The translations under genes and the position numbers were made by a program. From the NCBI GenBank assembly GCA_964497185.1, contig CAZCBX010000001.1:5333-69332 (forward strand): a stretch of 64,000 nt of DNA, in the 5' to 3' direction. The stretch comes from an uncultured Bdellovibrionales bacterium (GTDB lineage: Bacteria; Bdellovibrionota_G; JALEGL01; JAGRMV01). Shown here one piece after another: positions 43,152 through 61,079 of this stretch (position 1 is the stretch's first letter; every line of letters begins with the position of its first letter). The notes below the pieces were generated by a model. The model made no database searches. It saw only the letters and a program-made list of their open reading frames with translations, and was not told where the DNA came from.

Positions 43152-44567
43152 ATGAATTCAATATTGCGATACTTAATGTGGGGTGTTGGTGCGATTGTGG
43201 TGCTGTACGCATTGTTTTTTATCGCCTTGGAGACGGTGGGGGATCATTACATTCAAAAAAACCTGACCCAAGCTGCGCAACAACCGTATCAATTCGACCT
43301 CTCCATTGGCACCATAAGCCACTCTTTCTTTAAGCCCACACGGACCAAGATCAAAAATGCAGCATTGACGTATCAAAAAAACAAAGTCGTTGAAATCGAG
43401 CGCATGAAAATTGATTTGAGTGTCTTGGCGTTGATGAAACAAAAACTAAAAATCACCACTTTTGATTTCAAAGTCGCATCCTTGACCTTGAAGCCATCCT
43501 TGCTGGATCATGTTCAACAAGTGCAACCACCCGCTGACAAAGCGACATCCAAACCAGCATTGCCATTGGGCATCAACCGCTTGGAGTTGGTAGACAGCAA
43601 GGTGGAAGTGGACAAAGCCACTTATCAAAAAATGGCGTTGTCATCCTTGGTGCTTGAAACAAAAGATCTGAAAGTTGCATCCATAACTTCCCTTCTGTCC
43701 ACGCTATCGTGGAAAGCCACCATGCAGTTTCAACAATGGTCCCATCCCTACGTCGCCCTTGAAAATTGTGACATGCATATCAAACTGCAAAGTCAAACAA
43801 TGGACATCCAAAACATCCAATGCAAAGCCGAGGGCCAAAACCTTCAAGCGCAAACCACGTTTCAACTCTCACCCCTGAGCGACATTCACTTAAAGCTTCA
43901 ATACGATCAAATCGATCTAAAAAAATGGTCCAGCCAAGTGGCGCCAGAGCTGGGCTATCCCATATCAGGCCAGCTCAACCTACACACGGATGTACGCGTA
44001 GCGGACCTCCAACAGTGGCAACAAGCGCAAGGTCAAGTGCGGGTTGAAGGGCAAAACATTGTAATTGAAAACATCAACATCGACCGGTTGATTGATGCCT
44101 ATGTGCAAAGCAATCAGACCAGTTTGCTCAACGTGGCTGGTTTTATGGCACTGGGCCCCGTCGGCATTTTGGCCACGCAGTCGGCTAAGCTGGGCAAAAA
44201 CATGCCGGGCCTTATGCAGGGGCAAACCAAAATGGAAACGTTGCACGTGGAATTGGAAATTGCAGACCAATTGGCCAAGACCCAAGATGTTGCATTCAAG
44301 ACGGCCAAACATCGGGTGGCGGCCCAAGGCGCCATTGATCTCAAAGAACAAACCTACCAAAATTTTGAAATTGGATTTTTGGATGCCCAAGGCTGTGCCA
44401 AGCTGGTGCAAACCATCGAAGGCTCGCTGACCCAACCTTCGTTTCGCATCACGCGTTCATTGATCAAAACCATCACCGCCCCGGTGACCAACATGACAAA
44501 TAGAGTAGAAAACATGCTGACAGGTGGCTGTGAAAAATTTTACCAAGGCACCGTTGCACATCCTTGA
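43152..44567 (+). CDS. AsmA-family (outer-membrane biogenesis) protein; 3' ~300 bp belongs to the island-flanking direct repeat
   Basis: N-terminal TM anchor then long beta-rich domain, AsmA-like C-terminus; last 294 bp duplicated at 60783-61079. Confidence 0.5.
   Translation: MNSILRYLMWGVGAIVVLYALFFIALETVGDHYIQKNLTQAAQQPYQFDLSIGTISHSFFKPTRTKIKNAALTYQKNKVVEIERMKIDLSVLALMKQKLKITTFDFKVASLTLKPSLLDHVQQVQPPADKATSKPALPLGINRLELVDSKVEVDKATYQKMALSSLVLETKDLKVASITSLLSTLSWKATMQFQQWSHPYVALENCDMHIKLQSQTMDIQNIQCKAEGQNLQAQTTFQLSPLSDIHLKLQYDQIDLKKWSSQVAPELGYPISGQLNLHTDVRVADLQQWQQAQGQVRVEGQNIVIENINIDRLIDAYVQSNQTSLLNVAGFMALGPVGILATQSAKLGKNMPGLMQGQTKMETLHVELEIADQLAKTQDVAFKTAKHRVAAQGAIDLKEQTYQNFEIGFLDAQGCAKLVQTIEGSLTQPSFRITRSLIKTITAPVTNMTNRVENMLTGGCEKFYQGTVAHP
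44274..44567 (+). repeat. Direct repeat A (AsmA 3' end; left island junction)
   Basis: About 97% identical to 60783-61007 over the first ~225 bp; the last ~70 bp diverge, and the two copies differ in base composition there. Confidence 0.8.
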
Positions 44568-44582
44568 TGTTTAGGTGTAAAA

Positions 44583-45956
44583 TTATTTCATCATTTGCAA
44601 ACGTTTCATACGTCGAATCAGAGAAGATCTCGAAATTCCTAACAAAGTGGAGGCTTTTTGTTTTTGCCCAAAAGCTTGATCCAGTGCTTTTTGAATGAGC
44701 TGTTTTTCATACGCGTCAAGGGCCTGCTCAAATTGATTCATTGGCTTGTTGGCAGTCGATGAAGCGGGGGATGTGTTTTCCAAAACATAGGCTGGAATAT
44801 CCTGTGACGTTAATTCGCGATGGTCGGATAACACCAACATGGCATCTATGACATTAAACAACTGTCGTGCATTGCCAGGCCAGTCCATGCTGGATAAGCG
44901 TGCTTTGGTTTCTGCATGGATGGTTTTGTTTTCTTGATTGTGCTCGGTTCGTTCAAGATAATAGTCTATTAAAAGCGGGATGTCCTCTCGGCGTTCACGC
45001 AGGGGCTCCAAATGAAGCTGCACTACCGATAAACGGTAATACAAATCTTCCCGAAAAGTGCCCTCTTGGATTTGGATGCGCAAATCTCGATTGGTTGCGG
45101 CAATGACCCGAAAATTGGACTGAATCATCTGATGGCCACCAACCCGCTCAAATTCTTTTTCTTGTAAGACCCGCAAAAGTTTGGACTGTAGATGCAAGGG
45201 CATCGAACCGATCTCATCCAGAAAAATATCTCCGCCGTTGGCCAATTCAAACTTTCCGATTTTTTGTCGATCGGCTCCCGTAAACGCACCCTTTTCATGG
45301 CCAAACATGATCGATTCCATAAGCTCAGATGGGATGGCTGCACAATTAAGTGCTACGAAGGGCCGTGAATTTTTTTTATGCATGGAGTGAATATATCGAG
45401 ACAGCACCTCTTTGCCTGTCCCGCTTTCACCAATGATCAATACATTCACTTCTGCGTTGGCTACTTTTTGACTGACGAGGCGAAGTTTTTGCACATTTTC
45501 AGATCGACCAATGTATTCTTTGGCCACAGGCTCTGAAGACGAATCATAAATTGGATCATCAAATTGCCAAGCGATTTTACGAATGGATTTTTCAACCGTC
45601 TTATGAAGGTCATCTTTTTCAAATGGTTTGGTGATGTAATCCACGGCGCCAATCTTAAGTGCTTTGGCAATGGATTGCGAGTCGCGATCTCCAGTGAGCA
45701 TCAAATATTGGACATGTTTTCGCTTTCGCTTAAGTTCAGACAAAAGTGCAATGCCGTCGTCCTGATCCAAATGAACATCCAGAATCACCAAATCAGGATG
45801 ATTTTTTTGAAATATTTGTTTTGCCTCATCTCCAGTTTGGGCAGTCCATAAATCGTATCGCTCAGAAAGCTCTAATTTCAATGAGGCGAGAATACCGGGA
45901 TCATCATCGACACAAAGAATAGAAGGCTTGGTACGCATGTTATTTTTCCCTTTCAT
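44583..45956 (-). CDS. Sigma-54-dependent response regulator (NtrC/LuxO-like bacterial enhancer-binding protein)
   Basis: Receiver domain; AAA+ sigma-54 activator domain with GAFTGA (EKGAFTGA); C-terminal Fis-type HTH. Confidence 0.88.
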   Translation of the reverse strand: MKGKNNMRTKPSILCVDDDPGILASLKLELSERYDLWTAQTGDEAKQIFQKNHPDLVILDVHLDQDDGIALLSELKRKRKHVQYLMLTGDRDSQSIAKALKIGAVDYITKPFEKDDLHKTVEKSIRKIAWQFDDPIYDSSSEPVAKEYIGRSENVQKLRLVSQKVANAEVNVLIIGESGTGKEVLSRYIHSMHKKNSRPFVALNCAAIPSELMESIMFGHEKGAFTGADRQKIGKFELANGGDIFLDEIGSMPLHLQSKLLRVLQEKEFERVGGHQMIQSNFRVIAATNRDLRIQIQEGTFREDLYYRLSVVQLHLEPLRERREDIPLLIDYYLERTEHNQENKTIHAETKARLSSMDWPGNARQLFNVIDAMLVLSDHRELTSQDIPAYVLENTSPASSTANKPMNQFEQALDAYEKQLIQKALDQAFGQKQKASTLLGISRSSLIRRMKRLQMMK

Positions 45957-46137
45957 CCATTTGGTCCACCAACGCTTCCAAACGATCCAACGCCTGACCC
46001 GTGAACTCGTAAAAATCCTTCATAAAAGCTTCATCTTCTTTTTTGCTCGGAAGATGCCGCATAAAAGTACGAAGGGTTGTCAGTGGTTGCCGAAGATCAT
46101 GTTGAAGATTTGAAAAAGCCATTGTAGAAGTCTCCAA
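45940..46137 (-). CDS. 65-aa standalone H-box (HisKA/DHp-like) protein, candidate phosphotransfer component
   Basis: NLQHDLRQPLTTL matches the histidine-kinase H-box consensus (hELRTPL); 17-nt overlap with the sigma-54 regulator start suggests translational coupling. Confidence 0.4.
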   Translation of the reverse strand: METSTMAFSNLQHDLRQPLTTLRTFMRHLPSKKEDEAFMKDFYEFTGQALDRLEALVDQMDEREK

Positions 46138-46220
46138 TGCGTATTAGCACAAGCCATGCCATATTTTTACACCACTGGGTGGTCCATAACACACCCATTT
46201 GAATCAATACAGTACACACC

Positions 46221-46235
46221 GTTCGATATCCGAAC
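46221..46235. promoter_or_regulatory. Palindromic operator candidate GTTCGATATCCGAAC in the divergent promoter region
   Basis: Perfect inverted repeat GTTCG-N5-CGAAC about 65 bp upstream of the receiver gene; related copy at 53062-53076. Confidence 0.4.
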
Positions 46236-46300
46236 ATCAATCATGGTCTGCACAAAGATAAACTTGCCATATAACGCCTAACAATAGTATAAAAAAATCA

Positions 46301-46651
46301 ATGAGCCATACGCATTCACTCAAACAAATCTTGGTTCTCATTGATGATGACCCACTGATTCACGCCACATGGTCCATGGTGGCTCAAGCAAAAGGCCATC
46401 AACTTCAATGCTTCACGTGCATTGAAGACTTTAATCAGGCAAGTATCCCCCTGGACGTGCCTGTCTATGTTGATTACCACTTGGGAGAAAAATCGGGCGC
46501 CGACATCATCAAACGCTTGGCTCAAAGAGGGTACGATCATTTATACATCACCACCGGTCGAAAACCCACTGACATCATCAAAGAACCTGAAATGAAAGGA
46601 GTATTTGGCAAAGACTATCCAGAGCAAATTCCTCATTCCAGCTCTTTTTGA
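46301..46651 (+). CDS. Single-domain response regulator (CheY-like receiver only)
   Basis: 116 aa; acidic pocket IDDD; phospho-acceptor in VYVDYHL; conserved Thr (YITTG) and Lys. Confidence 0.75.
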   Translation: MSHTHSLKQILVLIDDDPLIHATWSMVAQAKGHQLQCFTCIEDFNQASIPLDVPVYVDYHLGEKSGADIIKRLAQRGYDHLYITTGRKPTDIIKEPEMKGVFGKDYPEQIPHSSSF

Positions 46652-46677
46652 TAAAAATCGGATGAATACTACACCAA

Positions 46678-48453
46678 CTAAACAATCGGAATTTGCTGAG
46701 CTAAACTTTTAGGCAATATTTTTAATTCAGTTTTCATGGCCAAATCCAGAAGACTTTCGTCCGCATAATGACTCGAAACCAATATAGAATGGTTTTCTAA
46801 GACATTTCGGTGAATGATTTCTTGCCCGTTCACGGGGCTGCCCAGCAGCTCGTAATCAACAAGAAATAAATAGCCCGTTAGCGAAGGCAACACAGAAATC
46901 CAATTTTCAAAAGAAGTAGAATCATAAAAATGGTGCAATTTGATATGATGGCTGATTTTAAAGTTTTGGAGTCGGTTTTTCCAAACTTGGTGAATGGAAG
47001 AGTCGTCATCAAGAATAATGACATTGGTTATTTGATTCAACGCGATAGAAGAGGGAAACCATGCAGGCGTCCGGGTTAAAGGAAAAATCATTTCTACTTC
47101 CGTACCGCGCCCAGGAGTGCTGGTGATTTCAATGGAGGCACTTGCTTTGTGTAAGTTTTTAAAAGCATGATACAAACCCAGTCCTTTGCCAGAAATTTTT
47201 CTATAGCTAATTCTGTCTCTGCCAAGTTTTTCTAAAACATCAGAAGGAATGCCAACACCATTGTCAGTAATTTTTACACTTGCATGATGGTCTTTTTTGG
47301 TCAAAGATATTTCTACACGCCCCTTAGACGGGATAGACTCAATGGCATTGGATAAAATATTTGAAAAAACTCTTTTCAACTCAACACTGCTAAATTTTAC
47401 AAAAGTATCAAAGGAGTGATCGGAAACAATAAAATCAATGGTAACTTTATCAATTTCTTGATGCTGAATTCTTTTTTCAGCCAGCACATGTTCGATTAAA
47501 ACGACAAGCAGTACAGGTTTTAAATTTTGATCGGTATATTCATCTTCGCTAATATTCGTCAGCGTACTTACAATGCCGTCAATTCGGTTGGTTGCTTCAC
47601 GGATAAGTAAACGATAGTTTTCTGGAATCTCATTTAAAGAGCCCGTAACCACCTTCAAAGCAGTCAGGGGTGATCTAATATCATGAACAACTTGATTGGC
47701 GACGGAGATCACACCTTCTTCTCTAGATTTTTTAGCCAATTTTGCTTGGGTTTCTTCTATCATTCGATTGTATGCATTAAATGCTAAGCTAAGAGTTTGA
47801 ATTTCGCCTACGCCCCGAACTTCTTCAATATTTTTTGCTCTTTTCATGACATCTTGGGTAAGTTTTCTGATAGGTCTTTCAAGATTTTCTATGATCAAAA
47901 GCATAATGCCACTAAAAATGAAAAATACGGAGGTAAAATAAAGCAAATATTTATAAAATTCCTGTTTGAATTCTTGTAAAAAGGAACGGCTTGAAATTTT
48001 TGCAACTATATTTCCCCATTCAGTGCTGTATCGATCTATCAGTTTTATGTTTAACTCAAATTGTCTGGTATTAAAGAAATAATCAATGAATGACCATGTA
48101 TCTGTCAAACCATGTTCACTTCCAACTAAAAATTCCTCTGCCCCGTAGTTGAGCTTTACGTATTGAAAAGATCCATTTTTTACAAGATAGTCCATTTTTC
48201 TTTGAACCGAAGCATATTTGCCCACTTGGAGGTCACTTAAAAAAGATTGTGAGTAGACATTTAGCCATTGGTTTTGATTTTCTACAAAAGTAGAAACGTG
48301 GTCACGAAATGTGGTGAAAGTAAATATTCCAAAAATAAAAAAAAGAGATAAAAAAATCGCTCCCAGCGTAATCATTAATTTTTGTCTAAACAGCATGGAC
48401 TTACTCATTAAAATAAACACTTTCCCACTCAGCCAGGTAACCTTTGATGCCAA
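46678..48453 (-). CDS. Hybrid sensor histidine kinase (HisKA + HATPase_c + C-terminal receiver-like domain)
   Basis: H-box VHDIRSPLTAL; G-boxes (ITDNGVGIP, GKGLGLY); C-terminal ILDDDSSIHQVW...LVDYEL receiver paralogous to the standalone receiver. Confidence 0.82.
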   Translation of the reverse strand: MASKVTWLSGKVFILMSKSMLFRQKLMITLGAIFLSLFFIFGIFTFTTFRDHVSTFVENQNQWLNVYSQSFLSDLQVGKYASVQRKMDYLVKNGSFQYVKLNYGAEEFLVGSEHGLTDTWSFIDYFFNTRQFELNIKLIDRYSTEWGNIVAKISSRSFLQEFKQEFYKYLLYFTSVFFIFSGIMLLIIENLERPIRKLTQDVMKRAKNIEEVRGVGEIQTLSLAFNAYNRMIEETQAKLAKKSREEGVISVANQVVHDIRSPLTALKVVTGSLNEIPENYRLLIREATNRIDGIVSTLTNISEDEYTDQNLKPVLLVVLIEHVLAEKRIQHQEIDKVTIDFIVSDHSFDTFVKFSSVELKRVFSNILSNAIESIPSKGRVEISLTKKDHHASVKITDNGVGIPSDVLEKLGRDRISYRKISGKGLGLYHAFKNLHKASASIEITSTPGRGTEVEMIFPLTRTPAWFPSSIALNQITNVIILDDDSSIHQVWKNRLQNFKISHHIKLHHFYDSTSFENWISVLPSLTGYLFLVDYELLGSPVNGQEIIHRNVLENHSILVSSHYADESLLDLAMKTELKILPKSLAQQIPIV

Positions 48454-49954
48454 TAAATTTGATATTTTTTAGATTTTTACTGGTGACGATCTTGGATTGA
48501 TTATGAACAATCGGGTAAGCCAAACTCTTTTTAATAAGGTAATGATCAATCGATGAATAAAGCCTAAATTTTTCCTCTATGGTATTGGATTTTTTTAGAT
48601 TTTCAAAATAAGTGTCTAAATCGTCGTGTTTTCCACCGATAAGATATTCATTTGAATCTTTGTAAAAATATTGCAAGGCGGACATGGGGTCTTCATTTTT
48701 AAAATAAAGTTTTTCAATCCAGACTGGAAGTTTTTGATTTTCATACAATTTGAATATTTCTGAAAAGGGAAGTACGACGGTTTCAACGCCGATTTCCAGC
48801 AAAGGCTTCCTAACAATGTCCAAAATGCAGTCCACCTGCTGATCATCAGCGATATGGAAGACCAAATTGTTAAATTTTTTATTTTTCACAACAGTTTGTA
48901 TATCCTCCTTATAACTCTGCGAAGAACCAATTAATCCTTTTGGAATAATCGAACTGGCTACGTTTTGATTCCCGTAGCAAACCTCTCGAATTTTATGAAT
49001 GGGAATGTTTGACAGTAAATATTTTCTGTACTCAACATTTTTTAATTCATCAAAATGATCTGAATTGATGATAATTGTTTCCGTACTGTATTCAGCAATC
49101 TCTTGATACGCAAAGTGGTCCAATTTTTCGATCTCAGAAAAATCGTCAATGCTATAAAAAATAAGATCCGCAACCTCACCAAGCTTGTACTTTTCTATGG
49201 CAACAGACTTTGCCTGCTGTGAAATAACAATGGTTTTGATTTTGGGTGCGTCGCCATAGTAATACTGATTTCTAGAAAGCTTGATCTCACCTTTTTTTGT
49301 TTCCACGACTGCATAAGGACCAGAAGAAACCGGGTATGAAAAATACGCCTCTTTTGCCATGTCACTAAAATTGTGTGGATAAATACAAAACCGCGGAAGG
49401 GAAAGGTTCATCATAAATTGATCGTAAGAATGAATAAGCTCAATATCAAGTGTCCGGTTGTCAACAATGCGGATACCATTTATGAATGGATTTTTTTCTT
49501 CTCTATACTCTTTTGCACCCAAAATTTGTGTTAACACGCTGCTATCCAGAGCATCTTTGTCGACCCATTGATGGAAAGAGAAGGCAATATCTTTGGCATT
49601 GATTTTTTCGCCATTAGAAAACCGAACTTCATCACGAAGATGCAATCGATAAATTTTTTTATCGGTATCAAATTCCCATGATTTCAACAAATCAGGCTTA
49701 ATGCCAAATGAATCATCCACCTTCACCAAATGGCTATAGATTGGATACAGTAGAGCTTTTTGAATAGAATCAGGGACTTTTTGTGGATTGAGGTTGTCAG
49801 GACGGACCGGAACCAAAATATTCCATACTTTGCTTTGGCTTGAAATTCTTTTTTGGTTAATTCTAGATAATTTTCCGAGAGAAAACGAATAAACCAAAAT
49901 TAAAATTCCAGTAAAAATGAGTATGAATGGCGCATATTTTTTCGGCATAATCAT
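48401..49954 (-). CDS. Periplasmic solute-binding protein, family 5 (Opp/Dpp-like), encoded without an ABC permease or ATPase
   Basis: 517 aa with signal/anchor; SBP_bac_5-like sequence; 53-nt overlap with the downstream kinase gene. Confidence 0.68.
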   Translation of the reverse strand: MIMPKKYAPFILIFTGILILVYSFSLGKLSRINQKRISSQSKVWNILVPVRPDNLNPQKVPDSIQKALLYPIYSHLVKVDDSFGIKPDLLKSWEFDTDKKIYRLHLRDEVRFSNGEKINAKDIAFSFHQWVDKDALDSSVLTQILGAKEYREEKNPFINGIRIVDNRTLDIELIHSYDQFMMNLSLPRFCIYPHNFSDMAKEAYFSYPVSSGPYAVVETKKGEIKLSRNQYYYGDAPKIKTIVISQQAKSVAIEKYKLGEVADLIFYSIDDFSEIEKLDHFAYQEIAEYSTETIIINSDHFDELKNVEYRKYLLSNIPIHKIREVCYGNQNVASSIIPKGLIGSSQSYKEDIQTVVKNKKFNNLVFHIADDQQVDCILDIVRKPLLEIGVETVVLPFSEIFKLYENQKLPVWIEKLYFKNEDPMSALQYFYKDSNEYLIGGKHDDLDTYFENLKKSNTIEEKFRLYSSIDHYLIKKSLAYPIVHNQSKIVTSKNLKNIKFIGIKGYLAEWESVYFNE

Positions 49955-49956
49955 AT

Positions 49957-51816
49957 TTATAGTTTGTTTTCAAACATGATTCCAAAATTCATTGATTCTG
50001 GATCATCATAATAATCTTTGAGTAATCCCAAATCAGTTGCGCCTGAGCTTGTGGCGGCACGGTAGCCATATTCATTGTATTTGGATATTTTTAAACCAGA
50101 ATGATACTGATCGATGGAAATCCCAAGCTCATGCCAATAGGCAAAGTTAGGGATTCGTATTCCATAAAAAATAGATTTAATGGCCTCTTCTTTATAAAAG
50201 ATCTTTGCAGCACGAATAATTTCAACTGCTGTCCCTATGGGCGCGTCTGGTAAGACAGAAATGGAAACAATGTATCTAGAATCAAAGTTGGACAAGGTTT
50301 TTTTAGCATAATCAATGCATGCATAATGATGCCACTTATGTTTTTTCATGGCTTGACTTTGATTGCATGGTACTGAATAGATAAAACCCACTGGTTTTCC
50401 TTTATTTCGGCTATAAGCGATCAGAAAATTATCAGGCTTTATTTTTAGTCTTTCTCGAATGGTTTCTTTGCTGGCGGCATGTTTTTTGAGCCATGATCCA
50501 TCTTCAATGTTGGATAAAATATCTACATCGCTTTCAAGAGCTTGAAATACAGCAATTTGATCTTTGGTGCGTGTAGTTGTTTTAGAAATGTATTTTTGAA
50601 CAGAAAAAGAAAAATCATCCAATTTTTGATTGAAAGACGAAATTCTTTGGGCAATCCTGGGTTGCTCATTGGATTCATTGGTCCATAAAACTTCTTTGTT
50701 CCCAACCAGCAAGGTGAGTTGATTTTGCTGCGCTTTTTCTAAGTCCAAATCAAAAACTCTTCCTTCATATGGATTGGTTAAAAACTCCCCCGTCCACCGA
50801 CCGTTTAATTCTATATCACCATCTTTCAAGGGTTTGCCAAGGGCCGTGTGGATAAGAAGCTCACCTATGTTCTCGTTTATTAAAGTTCGATTGATAAGCT
50901 CAGGCATATAGTCACCGGCTATTCGTGCATTGACTTCAATGAGAACAGGCATTTCATTGACCAGCTTAAATTCAATATGTGTCCAAGAGTTTTGTATTTT
51001 TAATGTTGTGTGACATGCCTGCGCGAAATTTTGGATGGCCTCCAAAATTTTCTCATTTTGAATATTGGTTGGAAAAGTATCGGATAATTCATTGGTGCAG
51101 TGAGTTTTTTTATCCGTAATACCAATGACGTGCGTTTTTCCATTGAGCACCATAGACTCTACACTGTACTCGTTGCCATAGATGATCTCTTCAACGACAA
51201 TGTCTTGAGTAATGTTACCATAAATTTTTCGTAAATTCTCCTCATGAAAATCAATGGTTCTTAATTCTTGTATAGCACCAAACAGTTCTTTTTCATTGTT
51301 GATGATTTGAACGCCAAGGCTGGCCATCATTTGTGCAGGTTTGATGATGAATGGAAACGCTAAATTTTTTTCCTTTAATTCATCATAAGTCGGACTTGCA
51401 TCTGAAAAGTAATAAAAATTTGGATTATAATGTGAAAAGGAACTTTGAATTTTCTCTCGCACTAAGCCTTTGTGTCGATAACTTGCTTGCGGGTCTTGAC
51501 TAATTGAAGGCAATTGAAGATCCATTTGCAGTTGATTGCAAAATCCCACGGAGGTCTCAACCCAACACAACGCCCCACAGATTTTCAACTGATATTTGGA
51601 AGCATATTGTTTGGTTTGCTGGGTTAAGTCATGGTGGCTTTGATAATCAAATACAAAGCCTTTAATAGAATATTTTTCTTCCAACCAGGAATAGTCCATA
51701 AAGGCAAGACCCTGAGCGTAAATAAAATGATAATCGGTGTTTTGCTTTAGTTGTTCCACCAAGTAAGCTTTGGAAGATTGAAAACCAGGTTCGACAATGA
51801 TGATTGTTTCTTTCAT
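49957..51816 (-). CDS. ATP-grasp ligase fused to a ~220-aa C-terminal domain of unknown function
   Basis: 619 aa; N-terminal ~400 aa ATP-grasp fold (carboxylate-amine ligase-like); extra C-terminal domain. Confidence 0.6.
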   Translation of the reverse strand: MKETIIIVEPGFQSSKAYLVEQLKQNTDYHFIYAQGLAFMDYSWLEEKYSIKGFVFDYQSHHDLTQQTKQYASKYQLKICGALCWVETSVGFCNQLQMDLQLPSISQDPQASYRHKGLVREKIQSSFSHYNPNFYYFSDASPTYDELKEKNLAFPFIIKPAQMMASLGVQIINNEKELFGAIQELRTIDFHEENLRKIYGNITQDIVVEEIIYGNEYSVESMVLNGKTHVIGITDKKTHCTNELSDTFPTNIQNEKILEAIQNFAQACHTTLKIQNSWTHIEFKLVNEMPVLIEVNARIAGDYMPELINRTLINENIGELLIHTALGKPLKDGDIELNGRWTGEFLTNPYEGRVFDLDLEKAQQNQLTLLVGNKEVLWTNESNEQPRIAQRISSFNQKLDDFSFSVQKYISKTTTRTKDQIAVFQALESDVDILSNIEDGSWLKKHAASKETIRERLKIKPDNFLIAYSRNKGKPVGFIYSVPCNQSQAMKKHKWHHYACIDYAKKTLSNFDSRYIVSISVLPDAPIGTAVEIIRAAKIFYKEEAIKSIFYGIRIPNFAYWHELGISIDQYHSGLKISKYNEYGYRAATSSGATDLGLLKDYYDDPESMNFGIMFENKL

Positions 51817-51827
51817 TGATTCTCCGT

Positions 51828-53061: not shown

Positions 53062-53076
53062 GTTCGGTATCCGAAC
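53062..53076. promoter_or_regulatory. Palindromic operator candidate GTTCGGTATCCGAAC (second copy)
   Basis: Extended palindrome ATGTTCGG-TAT-CCGAACAT in the divergent intergenic region. Confidence 0.4.
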
Positions 53077-53141
53077 ATAATGTGCAGACCGCTGAGATAT
53101 ACGTTCGTCAATTGATGCCAAACAAGAGTATAAAAAGATCA

Positions 53142-53744: not shown

Positions 53745-53760
53745 TGGCATACTCATTGCT
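53745..53760 (+). promoter_or_regulatory. Candidate sigma-54 (-24/-12) promoter for the biosynthetic operon
   Basis: TGGCAT-actca-TTGCT with GG-N10-GC spacing; imperfect palindrome TTTGGAAATAGAAC-gaac-TTGTTCTGTTTCCAAA at 53650-53684 about 90 bp upstream could be an enhancer-binding-protein site. Confidence 0.4.
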
Positions 53761-53772
53761 CTATGCCTTCAC

Positions 53773-55059
53773 ATGAAAATAAAAAATGTTGTACAAAGAA
53801 ACTGGCAAAAAGAGAAAATTAAAAAATCATCATTTCACCAAAATCTTTCCTTTAGCTCTGGCATTAACAACAAAAATGTCACTTCAAGAAAAGAGAAATG
53901 GATCGAACTTGCAGATGGAACCAGCGCCACAGAATTCATGTCTTGCTCATACCTGGGATTAGAAACTGACAACCGCCTTAAGAATGCCGCACTAAGTGCT
54001 ATCGATCAATATGGTGTGCAACTTGCTGTAGCTAGAACCAGAATCAAACCAATCATTTGTGAAGAGCTTGAAGAAAATCTACAAACCATTTTTCAAGGCC
54101 CTACGGTTACGTTTAGTACTGTAGGTCTAACTCACCTTGCCATCTTCCCTCTTCTAGGGGCTGGTGTTTTACCGTCGTATCCAGTGAGTGTCAATGGGCC
54201 GCTTTGGATCATGGATAAGACATCTCATGCTTCCATTCAGATTTTACGGGGTATCATGCAACAAAATGGTGAAGTGATTCGGGTATCATTCTCTGACCAT
54301 CAGGCACTTGCAGATGCATTTCAGTATGCACATAAAAGCCAAAGAACGCCTATCTCCATATCTGATGGTGTTGGTTCTATGGGAGGAGATGCTCCGGTTC
54401 GACTTCTAGTAGAACTTTCTTACAAATACAATGGATATGCATACATTGACGATGCCCATGGCACGTCAATTATGGGTAAATACGGAGGGGGATATGTCAT
54501 TCACGAGCTAAATGACACTCTCGATCCAAGAGTGATACTGGTCTCATCACTTTCGAAGGCATTTGGAGCCACTGGAGGCTGTGTAACGGTCCGAAGTCCT
54601 AACGATAAGGACACCATTCAACGATTTGGAACACCATATATCTTTGGCGGGCCTGTTTCACTTCCCGGTATCGCTGCAGCCCTTGCATCATCTGAAATTC
54701 ATATACAAGATGAAATCTATACGCTGCAAAATAAACTACAAGAAAACATAAAGCACTTTGATACCTTGGCTGGCAATAAGACAATTAACTTCAAAAAACG
54801 CATTCCCATTCGTGGTCTTGTTGTGGGGGATGAGGTGAAGTGCCTTAGCGTTTCAAAACAAATGTGGGAAAGAGGTTTTGGAACGACCGCTGCTATGTAC
54901 CCGACGGTACAAAAAGGCGAAGCCATGCTCCGCGTAGCGCTTTCCGTCCTCCATACAAAAAAACAAATAGAAAACCTCATTTATACGTTTCAGCATGCAA
55001 GACAAGGTTTGCATATTGTCACAGACACTCTCAAGGGATCCTCCAATGTACACGTATAA
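53773..55059 (+). CDS. PLP-dependent alpha-oxoamine synthase (BioF/Kbl/SPT/CqsA/LqsA family)
   Basis: 428 aa; N-terminal SYLGLETD motif; PLP-lysine motif SLSKAFGATGG; no bioA/B/D genes nearby. Confidence 0.75.
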   Translation: MKIKNVVQRNWQKEKIKKSSFHQNLSFSSGINNKNVTSRKEKWIELADGTSATEFMSCSYLGLETDNRLKNAALSAIDQYGVQLAVARTRIKPIICEELEENLQTIFQGPTVTFSTVGLTHLAIFPLLGAGVLPSYPVSVNGPLWIMDKTSHASIQILRGIMQQNGEVIRVSFSDHQALADAFQYAHKSQRTPISISDGVGSMGGDAPVRLLVELSYKYNGYAYIDDAHGTSIMGKYGGGYVIHELNDTLDPRVILVSSLSKAFGATGGCVTVRSPNDKDTIQRFGTPYIFGGPVSLPGIAAALASSEIHIQDEIYTLQNKLQENIKHFDTLAGNKTINFKKRIPIRGLVVGDEVKCLSVSKQMWERGFGTTAAMYPTVQKGEAMLRVALSVLHTKKQIENLIYTFQHARQGLHIVTDTLKGSSNVHV

Positions 55060-55909
55060 ATGTAAGACCGGATCCTCATCAATCCTACCTAATGGTAATG
55101 ACGTGCGGGCAAAATTATCAAAACATGGAGCTGTACTCTTTCGGGGGTACCGAATCTGCGTGAAAAATTTTGATCAGTATACAAATCAATTTGGTAACGA
55201 ACACTTGATTCATGGATCTATAAGGAAAAAAATTAATGCCAAAGATACCATTCAAGATGTCACAAAAGGCCAGGGAAAAGTATTGCCCCATATAGAAATG
55301 GGAAGAATGCCTACAAAACCCAATCAAGTTTGGTTCTTGAGCGAAAAGCCGGCTCTTATCGGGGGCGAAAGTACACTCGTTGATGGTATCAAGGTTGCTG
55401 AAAGCCTACCTGATCATGTGCGTAATTTCTTTAGGGATAATCCTATTTCTTTTCAAGCAAAAGTTTCTAAATTCTCTTGGCAGAGACTTTGGGGTATCCA
55501 AACACTAAGCGAATTAAAAGATCGTATGGATATGCTTTCCGTAAATCCTAACATTTCATTTGAGATGAATAAAGAAGATGAATCATTTATTGGAAGATAC
55601 AGCACCAGCGCATTTATCACTCAACCTGATGGAAAATTAGCTTTTAGTAATAGTATCGTAGGACCTTATGAAGGCCCTAGTGGAGGAGAATGCAGAATGC
55701 TAAATGGCAATCCAATTCCATCATCAATAATCGAAACCATCTTGAATTGCTACCAATACAATATGAACACAATTACCATGGATCCCGGAGATTTTATGGT
55801 CGTTAACAATCATCGCTTTATGCATGGCAGAGAAGCGTTTCGAGTAAAACCAGGTGATACAAGAAAAATGTATGCAAAACTTATCAAAGGAGAATTTCAT
55901 GCAATCTAG
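55046..55909 (+). CDS. Fe(II)/2-oxoglutarate-dependent dioxygenase (TauD/TfdA / clavaminate-synthase-like)
   Basis: HxE-type motif (PHIEMG) and distal HRFMHGR; start adjusted to MYTYKCK, 14-nt overlap with the upstream gene. Confidence 0.58.
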   Translation: MYTYKCKTGSSSILPNGNDVRAKLSKHGAVLFRGYRICVKNFDQYTNQFGNEHLIHGSIRKKINAKDTIQDVTKGQGKVLPHIEMGRMPTKPNQVWFLSEKPALIGGESTLVDGIKVAESLPDHVRNFFRDNPISFQAKVSKFSWQRLWGIQTLSELKDRMDMLSVNPNISFEMNKEDESFIGRYSTSAFITQPDGKLAFSNSIVGPYEGPSGGECRMLNGNPIPSSIIETILNCYQYNMNTITMDPGDFMVVNNHRFMHGREAFRVKPGDTRKMYAKLIKGEFHAI

Positions 55910-56951
55910 TCTAAAAGTGAATCAAATGATTCAACACGATACAAAACCTACACTTCAAGACCGCTCATTGGTTCAAATTATTACTTCTTATAGAAGCGCC
56001 AGCGCTTTGTATGCTTTTGTGAAGCTCGACCTCCCTACATTCATTCACAACAATTCTTCACCAACACTGAAGAAAGCTGCTTTTTACTCTGGTGTTCCCA
56101 TCGAAAAACTATCTCGACTCATGGATGTCATTGCCATGGAACAAATCGTAGCGATCGAAAATTCTTGTTTACACCTAACAACCAAAGGCAAACAATTGGC
56201 TACAGATAAGAGCCTAAGAGACTGGATTTTATGCGAGCTTAGCCCTACCTATTGGAATGTCTGGGCCAACCTAACAGACGCCCTCCAACAAAACATAGAC
56301 TGTGCTTTCGACTCTACACACAACCAGTCCTTTTTTCCCTACCTAAAAGAGAATGAGAATTTTCATAAACTATTTCAAAGCGTCATGACAAATTACTCGA
56401 TTCGAGCAGGGGCAGAAGTCGCGAAAGCAATCAACTTTGAGGATGATAAAAAAATCGTAGATGTGGGTGGAGGCCACGGCCACATGCTTTTTAGCATCCT
56501 CAAAGCCAATCAACACCTTCATGGATGCGTATTCGAGCTGCATGAGAATTATAAAGGATTTCAGATTGAAAAACAAAAAACCGGGCTTCTTGATCAAAGA
56601 GCAACTTTCCAATCCGGCAATTTCATGCATGAAGCTATTCCAAGGTGTGACACAATCATCATGAAAAATATTATTCATGATTGGGACGATGAAAATGCCG
56701 TTCATATACTTTCAGCATGTAGACAATCCCTGAAAAACAACGGCCGTATCATCCTGGCGGAAATTTTGAAATCTGAGGATCCACTTGACTCTTTAGGTAA
56801 AAGTTTGGATCTGCTTATGATGCTGCTATTCAATGGGAAAGAGCGAAATTATTCGCAATATCAATCTTTGGCTGAACAATCAGGCCTAACCATCAGCAAC
56901 ATCTACCCAACTAGAGGACCGCTTTCGTTGATTGAACTGAGAAAGGCATGA
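55899..56951 (+). CDS. Class I SAM-dependent O-methyltransferase (dimerisation domain + Rossmann fold)
   Basis: SAM motif VDVGGGHGH; start MQSSLKV preceded by AAAGGAGAA; 11-nt overlap with the dioxygenase gene. Confidence 0.75.
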   Translation: MQSSLKVNQMIQHDTKPTLQDRSLVQIITSYRSASALYAFVKLDLPTFIHNNSSPTLKKAAFYSGVPIEKLSRLMDVIAMEQIVAIENSCLHLTTKGKQLATDKSLRDWILCELSPTYWNVWANLTDALQQNIDCAFDSTHNQSFFPYLKENENFHKLFQSVMTNYSIRAGAEVAKAINFEDDKKIVDVGGGHGHMLFSILKANQHLHGCVFELHENYKGFQIEKQKTGLLDQRATFQSGNFMHEAIPRCDTIIMKNIIHDWDDENAVHILSACRQSLKNNGRIILAEILKSEDPLDSLGKSLDLLMMLLFNGKERNYSQYQSLAEQSGLTISNIYPTRGPLSLIELRKA

Positions 56952-57910
56952 ATATGCGTTGCTATTGGGTAGTTTGTTACAAAGATTTTGACGAGCAAAC
57001 GAGAAAAAAAATTGAAAACAAGTACCACAAGATGTTTCAAGAAGCATCAGAAAAGCACGGAATATCATTTTCGTTCATCGATAGTGAGGATCTCTCCATA
57101 ACATGTGATCATAAAACGAATATATGCTTGGGTAATCAGAATATTGCAACCGAAGATACAGCGTTTTTGATTTCAAATTTTAGTATGGACCCAAAAAGAA
57201 AGCGATACTTAGATCAGCTTTATTATGCTTTCCTTGAAAGCGACAGTACACTCCTTAACAAAACATTCTATCATGGGGCGCACCTTGAGAAAAATAAGTT
57301 TTCTATGACGCAACTCATAACTCAGCTTGGAATACCTAATATACCTACACACTTCATGAAACCCTCAGGTGATCTAAAACACGCAGAATTATTTTATCAG
57401 AACCACTGCATTGATCATGGCGCAATGCTAAAACCCAATGAAATGGGCATGGGCATTGGTATTTCTCATTGCAAATCCTGGCAAGATACCAAAGATACCT
57501 GGCAGCGTGATGGAAAAGACGTTGATTATATTTTGCAGCCCTATATTCCGCATATAGGAGATCTAAGATTATACCTTTACAACCACAGTGTTGTTGAGGG
57601 TCAATTTCGCATTGTTCCGAATGGACGACATCAAGCCAATATCTCTCAGGGTGCAATGAGCAAAGATGTTGAGTTCCCACAAGCATTACGAACTTTAGCA
57701 AAAAATATAAGTAGACACGTCGGTGCTGAGCAGTGCTGCATTGATTGGCTCATCACAGAAAAATCATTTTTCTTTAACGAAATCACAACAACACTAGGTG
57801 GGTTCACTGGGCTAAAGGAGAGCAAGCAAAAAGTGCTTGCAGACAGACTATTTAATTACATCCAATACCGTATAACATCGAACAAAGAAAAGAGAAACGT
57901 ATGGCCCTAA
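56948..57910 (+). CDS. ATP-grasp family ligase (RimK/GshB-like)
   Basis: 320 aa; ATP-grasp C-terminal half (DYILQPYIPHIGDLRLYLY...EITTTLGGFTGL). Confidence 0.6.
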   Translation: MNMRCYWVVCYKDFDEQTRKKIENKYHKMFQEASEKHGISFSFIDSEDLSITCDHKTNICLGNQNIATEDTAFLISNFSMDPKRKRYLDQLYYAFLESDSTLLNKTFYHGAHLEKNKFSMTQLITQLGIPNIPTHFMKPSGDLKHAELFYQNHCIDHGAMLKPNEMGMGIGISHCKSWQDTKDTWQRDGKDVDYILQPYIPHIGDLRLYLYNHSVVEGQFRIVPNGRHQANISQGAMSKDVEFPQALRTLAKNISRHVGAEQCCIDWLITEKSFFFNEITTTLGGFTGLKESKQKVLADRLFNYIQYRITSNKEKRNVWP

Positions 57911-59208
57911 CCTTACTTGAAAATTCTTACCTCACGTCCATCAAAGACATCTATGCACTTCAACATCAAAATGCACTCGCAACAATCCAAAGGCTTTCAA
58001 AGATTGATGCATATAAAGACAAATTAATTGGAATTGATCAAAATAATTGGAAAAATGATTGGTTCAAGGTTCAACAAATGAAAGCTCTGGACGTTGAAGC
58101 AACGCAAAAACAAGATGAAGCAAGAACAGCAGGCCCAGTCCTTCGGTCAGGTGGAACTAGCAGTCTTCGTAAGGTTATTCATCATTCTTGGAGATTTAAT
58201 GACCAAGTTACTCACCTTGGTGTGCGTTCATTTCAGGCAATTACAAACAAGACGAATTTTCGCATTGCCAATTGTTATAGCAGTGGTGATATGTTGGGGG
58301 CTTATTTTTTTGCAGAATCTATCGCTAGAGAGTTACGTTTACCCTACTACCCGATTGGAAGCTCGGTTCCTCTTGAAGAGACCCTCAATATAATCTCAGA
58401 CCACAAGATTGATATACTTATGGCAACGCCATCATACGCACAAAGCCTGTATCATCATGCCTCTATCAGAAATCAAAAAGAAAAATTATCATCTATATCG
58501 ATCATTCTGTATTTAGGAGAGATGTTTCCAAAAACATTTTATGAAAAAATTTGTAGCCTTCACCCGAATGTTTGCATCCATAATTTATCCTATACAACGA
58601 CCGAAACGGGACCGATTGGATATCAATGCACCTCATTGCCAAATGATTGTTTTCACATTCATGAGGACGCGATTTGGGTTGAAGTTATTGAGCCAATCAC
58701 AAAGCAGCCTATTATGGATGTGCCAGGCAATATTATCGTAACCCCCTTTTCAAGCACAGGTATCCCACTTCTTCGATATGACACAGGTGATAAAGGAATA
58801 TTGCGGTCGGTATCATGTCAATGTGGGCACAAAACAAGAGTGATTCAACTATTGGGAAGAAGTCAACAATCCATTAAAATTTGCGGTGCCATTATACAAA
58901 AGAGTTATATTATCGACTCTATTAGAAGTATATGTAAAGAAGCTCTCGTTAATGAAACCAATATTCAAGTCCAACAAATTCAGAACCATGATGGCATTCA
59001 AGTCAAAATATTGCTCAATAAGAAAAATTGGACGTGTATTTCAGCCAGACGAATTGAGGATAGACTGAGACAAGATCATCACTTCTCGTTTATTGTATCT
59101 CACCCTGCTTGTAGGCTCTTTGGTGTTTCGTCGGTTCCCTTCACTGAGTTTGCAATGACAAAAAGCGGAAAAACACCGTTTTTTATTACGATCCATGAGA
59201 AGCAATAA
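57901..59208 (+). CDS. Adenylate-forming enzyme of the PaaK / coenzyme F390 synthetase-like family
   Basis: P-loop-like RSGGTSSLRKV where PaaK has SSGTTGKP; 435 aa. Confidence 0.6.
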   Translation: MALTLLENSYLTSIKDIYALQHQNALATIQRLSKIDAYKDKLIGIDQNNWKNDWFKVQQMKALDVEATQKQDEARTAGPVLRSGGTSSLRKVIHHSWRFNDQVTHLGVRSFQAITNKTNFRIANCYSSGDMLGAYFFAESIARELRLPYYPIGSSVPLEETLNIISDHKIDILMATPSYAQSLYHHASIRNQKEKLSSISIILYLGEMFPKTFYEKICSLHPNVCIHNLSYTTTETGPIGYQCTSLPNDCFHIHEDAIWVEVIEPITKQPIMDVPGNIIVTPFSSTGIPLLRYDTGDKGILRSVSCQCGHKTRVIQLLGRSQQSIKICGAIIQKSYIIDSIRSICKEALVNETNIQVQQIQNHDGIQVKILLNKKNWTCISARRIEDRLRQDHHFSFIVSHPACRLFGVSSVPFTEFAMTKSGKTPFFITIHEKQ

Positions 59209-60414
59209 ATGAAAAACAACAATCCAAACCTAATTCCTCGCTGCACGATAACGTATGTTCTACTGACAAATATAGATTTTTTGATCATATTGCCTCTCAT
59301 TCCAGTGCTCGTAGGGGCTGAACATGGAAATGTAGCCACGAAAGTTGCATCAATTTTGTCGATGCGCATCTTTTTTTCAATGGGGTCTTCACTTTTTTCG
59401 TCGATCCTATTCAAAAAAACAAGCTATGGGACACTCCTTGCTATTGCGGCTATTTCTCGAGCCATTGCGTTTTTCATGCTGTTTCGATTCGATCTAACCA
59501 GTTTGTACTTATTTGCAGGCATTGCTGGTTCTGCCACAGGTCTTATTCGCCCAAGTGTTCGGGCTCTTTTGGCAGACACAACATCAGGAACGACAAAAAC
59601 ACTGTATTTTCAGTTTCTTTTCATTGCTATGAACGCTGCATTTGTCATTGGCCCTACAATATCTCGTTGGATCATGAAAAAAGACATCCTTGCAACAATA
59701 ATTGCTTACTTGATCACCATCGAGATCGCGCTTGCTCTAATGATGATCATGGTTGGTCGCCATGTAAAACCTCAGCATAATGAAACCAGCCAAGACAAAC
59801 CTTCGCTCCTGTCTATTGAAAGATACAGGCATTTTTTTTCTCCATTGCTCCAAATAGCTCTTTTCTATGAATTTCTTGCCTTTTTTGGCATTGGTTTCAT
59901 GATCGCTTGTTTTGTTTTATATAATAAAATCATTCCTGAACTTGGTGATTTTCGGCATTTTCTCCTAAGTTTTGAAGGATTTGCCATGATTGTAATGCAG
60001 TTGGTACTGCTACCCTTATTTACAAAGTTACGGGGAACAATTAAAATGCTACTTGTCAGCATATGTTTTGGAACAGGTGTGTACCTTGCATTTACACCTC
60101 CGTTATGGGTCGTTATTGTTGGATTAGTTGTTTTTGCTCTGGCAGAGTCTATTCTCTTGCCGCATATACAATTACTCATGTCAAAGGCATCAACCTCAGC
60201 CAACAGAAGACAAATCTATGCACTTGCAACATGCATCGCTGCATTGGGTGAAATTTGTGGTAACTTTTGCGCTGGCTTTATAATTGATGCACCATACTTT
60301 TCTCACCAACCCGCTACCAATGGACAAATTGTTGGGGTGCTGTTTCTTTTTGCCTTTGTTGCTTTGACCTTACATTATAGGCAACAAGAAAATATCATGA
60401 ATGATTCCATATAG
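59209..60414 (+). CDS. MFS transporter (probable product exporter)
   Basis: 401 aa, 12 predicted TM helices; start codon abuts the upstream gene's stop. Confidence 0.72.
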   Translation: MKNNNPNLIPRCTITYVLLTNIDFLIILPLIPVLVGAEHGNVATKVASILSMRIFFSMGSSLFSSILFKKTSYGTLLAIAAISRAIAFFMLFRFDLTSLYLFAGIAGSATGLIRPSVRALLADTTSGTTKTLYFQFLFIAMNAAFVIGPTISRWIMKKDILATIIAYLITIEIALALMMIMVGRHVKPQHNETSQDKPSLLSIERYRHFFSPLLQIALFYEFLAFFGIGFMIACFVLYNKIIPELGDFRHFLLSFEGFAMIVMQLVLLPLFTKLRGTIKMLLVSICFGTGVYLAFTPPLWVVIVGLVVFALAESILLPHIQLLMSKASTSANRRQIYALATCIAALGEICGNFCAGFIIDAPYFSHQPATNGQIVGVLFLFAFVALTLHYRQQENIMNDSI

Positions 60415-60782
60415 TGAAAACAGGAGTATTTGATAGAATTATCTTTGGATAACTGATTACTGACTCGAAATGAAATGAACACTAGGTTGCATTCTTTTTA
60501 GTACAATAGAAAAAGTCACCAGAAAGAGCATCATGTTATCGCATTTATAGACTCTGAATTTATTCCATATACTGCCCCAGGCTCGTAGATCGCCCCAGAT
60601 TTATTGAACGAGTAAAATAATTTAACCAACAAGACTTCTACTTCGAGAATCACAGGCTTGTAGTGTGTCTTCTATTTTTTTGGGCAGCTCGGTAAGCTGG
60701 TGTCCATGAATGCCATCGACCAAGGCATGGTGGGCAGACACGTTAAAGAAAAAAGAAAATCTATTTGGGCTGCGTTGGTATC

Positions 60783-61079
60783 TTGGCCAAGACCCAAGAT
60801 GTTGCATTCAAGACGGCCAAACATCGGGTGGCGGCCAAAGGCGCCATTGATCTCAAAGAACAAACCTACCAAAATTTTGAAATTGGATTTTTGGATGCCC
60901 AAGGCTGTGCCAAGCTGGTGCAAACCATCGAAGGCCCGCTGACCCAACCCTCGTTTCGCATCACGCGATCATTGATCAAAACCATCACCGCTCCGGTGAC
61001 CAACATGTCCGACCGCGTAGAAAACTTGCTGACCGGGGGCTGTGACGTTTTTTATCAGGGCACCGTTTCGCACCCCTAA
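60783..61079 (+). repeat. Direct repeat B: orphan AsmA 3' fragment (right island junction)
   Basis: Encodes ...LAKTQDVAFKTAKHRVAAKGAIDL...CDVFYQGTVSHP, near-identical to the C-terminus of the full AsmA gene but with no upstream coding context. Confidence 0.8.

Follow-up and report, generated by a model that had tools for sequence, protein, structure and literature searches.

The 64,000-nt stretch of DNA analysed here, referred to as the window, comes from an uncultured Bdellovibrionales bacterium (GenBank assembly GCA_964497185.1, contig CAZCBX010000001.1, positions 5,333 to 69,332 of the forward strand). Between a gene of the AsmA family and pccB, the gene for the beta subunit of propionyl-CoA carboxylase, it contains a genomic island of 16,215 bp (44568-60782) that is low in G+C and is bracketed by a 297-bp direct repeat of the 3' end of the AsmA-like gene. 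The island and its borders are defined by the following features.

43152-44567, plus strand: AsmA-like gene, an open reading frame (ORF) of 471 aa (463 aa in the JGI call) with matches to Pfam AsmA and DUF748; intact and, judged by its codon usage, chimeric.
44271-44567, plus strand: left repeat copy, the 3' end of the intact AsmA-like gene.
44496-44567, plus strand: putative island-borne replacement tail of 23 codons and the stop codon, with a G+C content at third codon positions (GC3) of 0.29; 20 of 72 positions are mismatched and most residues are conserved.
60415-60782, no strand: AT-rich non-coding right end of the island, 368 bp, which meets the orphan at the junction 60782/60783.
60783-61079, plus strand: orphan 3' end of the AsmA-like gene, host-type throughout (GC3 0.60 and 0.67; codon-usage scores +0.23 and +0.27).
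61134-62690, minus strand: pccB, host flank (Pfam Carboxyl_trans, 3e-209).

Pairwise alignment and ungapped comparison pair 44271-44567 with 60783-61079, each copy running through its stop codon, with a start-to-start spacing of 16,512 bp. The left edge of the repeat is abrupt, in that TTGGCCAAGACCC opens both copies and no sequence is shared 5' of it, and 3' of the stop codons the identity is 35%, which is the random level. Within the repeat the mismatches rise in steps, from 1 in 153 bp (offsets 0-152) over 4 in 72 bp (offsets 153-224) to 20 in 72 bp (offsets 225-296). The alignment thus bears out the original prediction for this stretch, according to which the 3' end of the AsmA-like gene recurs as an orphan fragment; it puts the start of the repeat at 44271 and counts 5 mismatches in the first 225 bp and 20 in the last 72. 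The reading frame is kept in both copies, and the tails, which comprise the last 24 codons, differ mostly by synonymous or conservative changes (17 of 24 residues are identical when counted from the translations). The orphan is separated by 54 bp from the stop codon of pccB.

Codon usage was scored as a log-likelihood ratio with leave-one-out training, positive values being host-like and negative values island-like. By this measure the 225-bp blocks of both repeat copies are host-like (+0.25 in the left and +0.23 in the right copy; GC3 0.60), whereas the last 72 bp differ between the copies: in the left copy, the end of the intact gene, they are island-like (score -0.16, GC 0.42, GC3 0.29) and in the orphan they are host-like (score +0.27, GC 0.56, GC3 0.67). 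Along the AsmA-like gene the score runs from +0.10 in the 5' part over +0.25 at 44271-44495 to -0.16 at 44496-44567, so that an abrupt break in codon usage falls inside one ORF at 44495/44496; a second one is found at 60782/60783. The orphan, in turn, retains 225 bp of host-type upstream sequence together with the native tail. Judged by composition and position, the AsmA-like gene originally ended in what is now the orphan, and the intact gene is a chimera whose final codons were imported, because the orphan is host-like throughout and lies next to pccB while the tail of the intact gene is island-like. Since the AsmA-like ORF ends in island-type codons and the orphan keeps a host-type tail, the incoming DNA must have brought its own homologous gene end, as had been proposed before from the letters of the sequence and is now upheld by the contrast of the two tails in GC3 and codon usage.

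The locus is found in three JGI metagenomes (3300040801, 3300040788 and 3300040789), and the island is present in all three populations. In 3300040789 it is distributed over three contigs, one carrying the host flank up to offset 152 of the repeat, one the left end of the island from offset 36 and one pccB and the orphan, likewise from offset 36. These contigs overlap by 117 nt, and the assembly breaks at this point because 153 bp are identical in the two repeat copies of this strain. At offset 54 (position 44325) its left copy has an A, like the orphan, where the window has a C; the C in the window is therefore a strain-specific single-nucleotide polymorphism. Read from these sequences, the older pattern of the repeat is one of 100% identity, then 94%, then 72%. 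A uniform divergence behind the five mismatches in the 225-bp block was considered and rejected, as one of them is the strain-specific polymorphism and the other four, at offsets 153-224, cluster beside the foreign tail (about p = 0.01). Such a cluster is as would be expected at a heteroduplex or crossover junction.

The drop in G+C that had been noticed between the repeats is substantiated by computation. The insert as a whole has 38.7% G+C and its core (46652-60782) 38.1%, as compared to 48.8% (1-44270) and 49.9% (60783-64000) in the flanks. Windows of 1 kb average 0.380 inside the island (maximum 0.414) and 0.488 outside (sd 0.030; Mann-Whitney p = 2e-8), and when tetranucleotides are counted in 2-kb windows all those from 45 to 61 kb lie nearer to the island centroid and all others nearer to the host centroid. 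Likewise, every one of 28 host genes scores between +0.06 and +0.22 in codon usage, as against -0.05 to -0.20 for 10 of 10 genes of the island core. A regulator block at 44583-46651, however, stands between the two as a codon-usage class of its own, the third, with scores near 0, and it is only from about 46.65 kb onwards that the core with its strong AT-richness begins. Together with a nested direct repeat that had been overlooked, this block shows that the island is not a single uniform unit. We infer that the island is composite, horizontally acquired, made up of three codon-usage classes and now immobile.

The regulator block and the nested repeat comprise the following features.

44583-45956, minus strand: NtrC-type sigma-54-dependent response regulator with REC, AAA+ and HTH_8 domains (Pfam Sigma54_activat 7e-70, Response_reg and HTH_8; codon-usage score 0.00).
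45940-46122, minus strand: HisKA-only ORF of 60 aa with the H-box HDLRQPL (Pfam HisKA 4.5e-7; also called as a gene in the JGI contigs).
46221-46414, plus strand: internal repeat copy A, consisting of the palindrome GTTCGATATCCGAAC, a promoter region and codons 1-38 of the receiver-like gene.
46301-46651, plus strand: stand-alone receiver-like gene, 116 aa by translation (weak match to Pfam Response_reg, E 0.07).
53062-53255, plus strand: internal repeat copy B, which pairs with copy A at 46221-46414.
53142-53462, plus strand: receiver-like pseudogene, full-length and with in-frame stops, in which Gly replaces the putative acceptor Asp.

The gene of the sigma-54 regulator is convergent with the AsmA-like gene and lies 15 bp from its stop codon, and its start is overlapped by the 3' end of the 60-aa HisKA ORF, which could be what is left of a kinase after truncation or else a small protein for histidine phosphotransfer within a relay. 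The internal repeat copies A and B are 94% identical over 139 bp and 84% identical over 194 bp. In the pseudogene the first 38 codons are nearly identical to those at 46301-46414 and the remainder is about 35% identical in protein (56% for the receiver-like gene and its pseudogene copy compared as such), the diverged part at 53256-53462 having a codon-usage score of -0.23, which is of the island-core type. A near-identical block that abuts a strongly diverged homologous remainder is thus a structure found twice at this locus, once in the 297-bp repeat and once in the internal repeat. The palindrome itself, GTTCG-N5-CGAAC, occurs in the 64 kb only at 46221-46235 and 53062-53076, each time in a divergent promoter region with a copy of the receiver-like gene 65-80 nt downstream, which points to a shared operator.

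But how did the island enter the chromosome? The original prediction had pointed out that no integrase or transposase is visible, and Pfam scans bear this out: among the ORFs of at least 80 aa at 44.5-61.1 kb none carries an integrase, resolvase or transposase domain (Phage_integrase, Resolvase, rve, DDE) or a phage, conjugation or replication domain. Such mobility domains are missing as well from the large ORFs on either side of the island within the window (44 kb to the left and 2.9 kb to the right) and from the 8.7 kb that follow its right end on a longer contig (L083), which makes about 11.6 kb on the right side in total. At the DNA level, comparison with 72,556 plasmids and 50,697 phages returned only generic domain-level matches to sigma-54 AAA+ and alpha-oxoamine synthase (AOS) sequences, and Rfam gave no RNA family anywhere in the window. 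Non-coding DNA amounts to only about 0.7 kb of the island. Its AT-rich right end, which had been singled out as a place where integrase remnants might hide, was read in six frames and yielded no convincing remnant but only a peptide with an acyltransferase-type motif. This peptide is encoded in a minus-strand frame at 60672-60782, ending ...FFFNVSAHHALVDGIHGHQLTELPKK..., that carries the motif HHxxxDG (HHALVDGIH) and is cut exactly at the orphan junction; its matches to chloramphenicol acetyltransferase (CAT) and WS/DGAT acyltransferases are not significant (E 0.2-1.2), and the motif is a hint only at a possible gene remnant.

We put the chances at about even that the island was taken up by recombination within the final ~300 bp of the AsmA-like gene, in a 3'-end displacement carried out by the general homologous recombination of the host and not by a recombinase of the element. 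Recombination by the host machinery is favoured because there is no recombinase gene, because the repeat contains a 153-bp identical block from which identity decays stepwise, and because the same mosaic motif is repeated inside the island. As far as the sequence pattern goes, the stepwise identity and the identical block are more in keeping with homologous recombination than with a short att core. In such an event the AT-rich version of the last 24 codons that came with the incoming DNA would have taken over as the terminus of the AsmA-like ORF, and the native last 297 bp would have been shifted 16.5 kb downstream to survive as the orphan beside pccB. Two routes could lead there, namely the single crossover of a circular intermediate with a host-like homology segment (Campbell-type insertion-duplication) or illegitimate recombination that is facilitated by homology and has its anchor in the end of the gene; the recombination enzyme and the circular intermediate are both presumed.

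Such an entry has counterparts among known systems. Campbell-type insertion-duplication is familiar chiefly from laboratory use and from integrated plasmids. As here, direct repeats of the homology segment then bracket the insert and the target remains intact since the segment reaches the end of the gene; the island differs in that it has no replication or mobilisation gene, and its circular intermediate would have to be assumed. The layout also matches the displacement of C-terminal ends in rhs, cdiA and type VI secretion system (T6SS) loci, a process that is attributed to recombination, either homologous or of the homology-facilitated illegitimate type, and in which the orphaned 3' ends keep some upstream sequence (PMC5361080 and references therein). 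In these loci too, a homologous anchor and a new 3' end take over the ORF, the old end is pushed downstream and no recombinase is needed. However, they encode polymorphic toxins with immunity genes and exchange functionally different tips, whereas at the present locus near-equivalent tails have been exchanged along with a 16-kb regulatory and biosynthetic passenger. The orphan end that characterises displaced loci is found here; the gene concerned is AsmA/DUF748-like and not a polymorphic toxin gene, and the gene next to it encodes the sigma-54 regulator.

Several points count against entry by host recombination. A plain double crossover makes no direct repeats, and on the Campbell route the incoming circle must from the start have contained a near-host segment of 153-225 bp fused to a 72%-identical tail; with such a mosaic segment pre-existing on the incoming DNA, an earlier exchange with this host lineage would therefore have to be assumed. 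Homologous recombination is inefficient across 72-76% identity. The collections contain no island-free relative and no empty site, so that insertion, as opposed to loss elsewhere, and the exact point of the crossover are presumed. Finally, the architecture of the locus, with its sharp left edge, an end at the stop codon, an element-borne gene end and an orphan at the far end, is the same as that of the integrase-mediated e14.

This last point leads to the main alternative, namely that a site-specific integrative element of the e14, phage 21 or SGI1 kind has decayed to the present island. It would have been integrated by a tyrosine recombinase, with a crossover in the identical block, through an attP carrying its own copy of the AsmA 3' end, and would later have been grounded by the loss of its integrase and excisionase genes. 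The residence of the cryptic prophage e14 in the 3' end of icd of E. coli, with icdC as the orphan, provides a close comparison (PMC13626634). At icd, e14 and phage 21 likewise leave an intact gene with a diverged 3' end borne by the element, the native orphan at the far end and a repeat that ends at the stop codon. We measured this layout in e14, and the target-gene direct repeats and the deviating composition that mark integrase elements of the e14/SGI1 type are found at our locus as well; the low G+C content of the DNA, its accessory cargo and the AT-rich 368-bp non-coding right end, which could be the remnant of an attP arm, are in keeping with this explanation. The element-encoded recombinase of such elements, however, is missing here: e14 carries intE and xisE inside the element as well as phage genes, whereas the island contains no recombinase gene or recognisable remnant of one, has only the small amount of non-coding DNA given above in which one could have decayed, and lacks phage, conjugation and replication genes. 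The repeats differ too. Those of icd and icdC share 165 bp with 12 differences that are evenly spread, unlike the 297-bp repeat in the AsmA-like gene with its 153-bp identical block followed by 94% and then 72% identity. Moreover, the island is mosaic in its composition, with three classes. On balance we regard a decayed integrative element as possible but rather unlikely.

According to a further alternative, the segment has long been resident in the lineage, its low G+C content being the result of local mutational or selective bias on a secondary-metabolite locus and the orphan that of a local partial duplication of the gene end. Its presence in all three metagenome populations without a known empty site agrees with this, and absence of the island elsewhere would be uninformative as the lineage is one without sequenced relatives. 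Indeed, among 5.8 billion proteins the AsmA-like protein has only identical copies and one homologue of 28% identity (P0002/P0003), whose gene contexts are unrelated, and no relative was found in genome contigs; for pccB there is nothing closer than 72% in the GTDB representative genomes, and the best matches are scattered over many phyla. The host lineage thus appears to be without a close sequenced relative. A pattern made for the empty site (AsmA upstream part, 207-nt gap, native tail) had no match in the JGI metagenome contigs, and look-ups of exact proteins retrieved island-bearing contigs only. One cluster member of 42 aa (P0157) was discarded in these searches, since it led to unrelated polyketide synthase contigs. 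Against an old resident it must be held that an in-situ duplication cannot give 20 mostly synonymous, AT-ward differences in a 72-bp tail beside 153 identical bases and that codon usage breaks abruptly at both junctions, and we consider this explanation very unlikely. An assembly chimera, in which the contig of a lower-G+C organism would have been spliced on at shared AsmA-like sequence, has in its favour the metagenomic source and the break of assembly 3300040789 exactly in the repeat, but is improbable in the extreme. Two independent assemblies cross both island junctions and agree with the window at 99.97-100% identity, at the right junction unique island DNA is fused directly to the beginning of the orphan fragment, a join that shared k-mers could not bring about, and the 117-nt overlap of the third-sample contigs is as expected for a true 153-bp exact repeat in one genome.

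The cargo of the core falls into two arms on either side of the receiver-like pseudogene. The original prediction had listed the content of the island as regulators, a kinase, a binding protein, ligases, a dioxygenase, a methyltransferase and transporters, and this list stands, except that the supposed aminotransferase is an AOS, the AMP-binding protein a PaaK-like CoA ligase and the 391-aa protein of unknown type an MFS-fold transporter. The genes of the left arm are as follows.

46678-48453, minus strand: membrane sensor histidine kinase, 591 aa (Pfam HATPase_c, HisKA).
48401-49954, minus strand: periplasmic family-5 solute-binding protein, peptide or opine type (Pfam SBP_bac_5 4e-39).
49957-51816, minus strand: ATP-grasp enzyme, 619 aa (Pfam ATP-grasp_4), with an N-terminal part of ~340 aa of the L-amino-acid-ligase type and a C-terminal part of ~280 aa that has no known fold.
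51828-52967, minus strand: 12-helix transporter with an MFS fold, from a rare family (no Pfam model; AlphaFold2 predicted local distance difference test score (pLDDT) 84).

The order of transporter, ligase, binding protein and kinase is repeated in one unrelated metagenome contig (L088), with 28-31% identity for the last three proteins. The kinase is 30% identical to its counterpart there over the full length, and its C-terminal extension contains an ILDDDxxIHxxW motif resembling the receiver-like gene, albeit as a weak motif match. The binding protein is 28% identical to its homologue on the same contig; it hits the nikA, Opp and DppA types of NCBIfam, all below cutoff, and the island ORF annotation lists no ABC permease gene near it. 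The N-terminal half of the 619-aa ligase matches the L-amino acid ligases, among them BacD, DdaF and BL00235 (PDB 3vot, L-amino acid ligase, 4e-16; NCBIfam DdaF below cutoff), from which the protein differs by its extra 280-aa domain. Only one full-length homologue of it (31%) is found among 5.8e9 proteins. The C-terminal 297 aa (49957-50850, minus strand) constitute an extra domain that is conserved in this single distant homologue (P0008), and the sole clue to its nature is a weak, GNAT-like LPG_synthase_C hint (E 0.02). The transporter has 21 homologues among 1.8e9 representatives, and Foldseek matches its model to SLC15A4, NorA, VMAT2 and POT transporters with probability 1.0. From their order and families, the four genes of the left arm may be read as a module that makes, exports and senses a compound.

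The right arm contains a putative biosynthetic operon, preceded by a candidate promoter.

53647-53682, plus strand: palindrome with a 16-bp stem, followed by a T-run, 63 nt 5' of the sigma-54-like site.
53745-53760, plus strand: sigma-54 -24/-12 promoter-like site TGGCATactcaTTGCT, an exact match to TGGCAYN5TTGCW.
53773-55059, plus strand: AOS of the BioF/Kbl family (NCBIfam PRK07505, 423 bits against a cutoff of 342).
55046-55909, plus strand: TauD-family Fe(II)/2-oxoglutarate dioxygenase (Pfam TauD 4e-19).
55854-56951, plus strand: small-molecule O-methyltransferase (Pfam Methyltransf_2 8e-40).
56948-57910, plus strand: RimK-like ATP-grasp amide ligase (Pfam RimK 6e-10; NCBIfam rimK_fam below cutoff).
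57901-59208, plus strand: PaaK-like adenylating acyl/aryl-CoA ligase (NCBIfam PaaK and FlxY types; phenylacetate-CoA ligases in the PDB, 2e-14).
59209-60414, plus strand: MFS transporter, likely an exporter (Pfam MFS_1 2e-17).

The best PDB match of the AOS is 8XHA (3e-40), the structure of Alb29 (PMC11906848). The order of AOS, TauD and O-methyltransferase genes is repeated in another contig (L092) at 59, 38 and 31% identity, respectively; a 113-aa ORF located there 5' of the AOS gene was tried as a relative of the receiver-like protein and rejected as unrelated. AOS homologues, from Klebsiella and others, stand in gene contexts different from that of the island. We also note an AOS-family gene on a small, mobilisable plasmid of E. 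coli (CP057426.1; 6.7 kb), which is 75% identical to the island AOS over 152 bp. A scan of the metagenome contigs with a TauD alignment gave no match, yet it also missed the known JGI contigs, and the collection searched may not hold them.

With both strands of the 64-kb window counted, the strict sigma-54 consensus TGGCAYN5TTGCW has a single exact match (0.53 expected), which lies on the correct strand and ends 13 nt 5' of the AOS start. The strict form was used since a loose pattern with up to 2 mismatches is uninformative (104 sites found as against 105 expected). The palindrome upstream of the site may be either a terminator or an activator-binding site. The features of NtrC-type control are thus represented by an activator with the REC, AAA+ sigma-54-interaction and HTH_8 domains and, as a sequence match only, by the -24/-12 promoter.

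From gene order and motifs we infer that the cargo is one self-contained regulated unit. The PaaK-like ligase would provide an acyl-CoA, which the AOS would condense with an amino acid; hydroxylation by the TauD protein, O-methylation and amide ligation by the RimK-like enzyme would follow, and the MFS pump would export a product of the aminoketone or pseudopeptide type. The make/export/sense module of the left arm would signal to the NtrC-type regulator, possibly via the 60-aa HisKA protein and the receiver-like protein, and the regulator would activate the sigma-54 promoter ahead of the biosynthetic operon. The signalling logic and the chemistry of the cargo are both predicted in this scheme, and a number of observations weigh against it. 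The sigma-54 site amounts to one motif match, which lies very near the AOS start codon, no such site was found in the homologous operon of L092, and none of the ORFs annotated across the 64-kb window is rpoN. The AlphaFold2 model of the 619-aa ligase, built on a two-sequence alignment, has a pLDDT of 40 and is unusable, and the idea of a signal loop is taken from gene order only.

As to the chemistry, the combination of an AOS with a RimK-like ATP-grasp enzyme recalls the ketomemicin (ktm) and albogrisin (Alb29) systems, but the likeness holds at the family level only. In the former, ktmA, C, F and E are the genes for the aldolase, dehydratase, dehydrogenase and amidinotransferase (PMC11943689). 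None of these four families occurs among the island ORFs, and since four of the six ktm genes are thus absent the island is not of the ktm cluster type. It differs further by the partners of the AOS, which are a PaaK-like ligase, a TauD protein, an O-methyltransferase and an MFS pump, and by its low identity to solved AOS enzymes. By analogy, the island pathway may resemble ketomemicin or albogrisin chemistry in principle and could yield an aminoketone or pseudopeptide independently of a nonribosomal peptide synthetase.

As to sensing, the binding-protein gene lies directly upstream of the membrane kinase gene and overlaps it, an arrangement reminiscent of LuxP/LuxQ-type sensing via a periplasmic binding protein. 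TorT/TorS is likewise a kinase sensing through a periplasmic binding protein. The four-gene order of the island, with its putative sensing function, has only one distant counterpart, on contig L088. A bolder proposal would combine cargo and entry: the island would be a recombinase-free homology-arm cassette with a captured host gene end, which integrates by means of the recombination machinery of the host, repairs the target ORF with its divergent tail and carries an undescribed autoinducer-type circuit. In this circuit a peptide made by the L-amino-acid ligase would be exported by the atypical MFS protein and perceived outside the cell by the family-5 binding protein and the kinase, whose signal would reach the sigma-54 activator and thereby switch on the AOS-based aminoketone or pseudopeptide pathway. 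We consider this proposal doubtful and clearly unlikely as it stands.

The start of the window is the region of the chromosomal replication origin, with recF (26-1117), dnaN (1125-2249) and dnaA (2584-3936) on the minus strand, and clusters of DnaA boxes at 2280-2637 and 4164-4331. Between 4 and 5 kb the G+C dips to 0.40, and the genes that come next are yidC, jag, mnmE, mnmG, parA and parB. The island is therefore only about 40 kb away from oriC. The claim that it splits an otherwise contiguous set of propionate genes did not strictly hold, as accC and pccB are kept apart anyway by two other genes, an Exo_endo_phos gene and the AsmA-like gene. An AAA_14/DUF4143 ATPase gene (36642-37808, minus strand) between tatC and the methylmalonyl-CoA mutase gene has a GC3 of 0.45 and a codon-usage score of +0.05, below its neighbours, and may be another, smaller acquisition. 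Past pccB, beyond the right end of the window (L083, 2825-9786), there are genes for a cNMP-binding ferredoxin-domain protein and for a multihaem cytochrome of 667 aa, the matches of which are MtrC/cytochrome c3-like; these genes hint at a lifestyle of the host that involves extracellular electron transfer.

Taken together, the island is of a familiar architectural kind and a fairly ordinary horizontal acquisition that is notable for the absence of mobility genes, and our findings do not overturn the current understanding of genomic islands. They provide a natural example of a large accessory island that entered a chromosome with no visible mobility gene and with its target gene kept intact, and as such they bear on the spread of biosynthetic clusters in lineages without classical mobile elements. 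Through its direct repeats the island can be deleted reversibly, which would restore a native-like gene. With a cargo that combines very rare protein families with a plausible sense-and-respond wiring, the island is a reasonable target for the discovery of natural products or signalling systems in an uncultured lineage.

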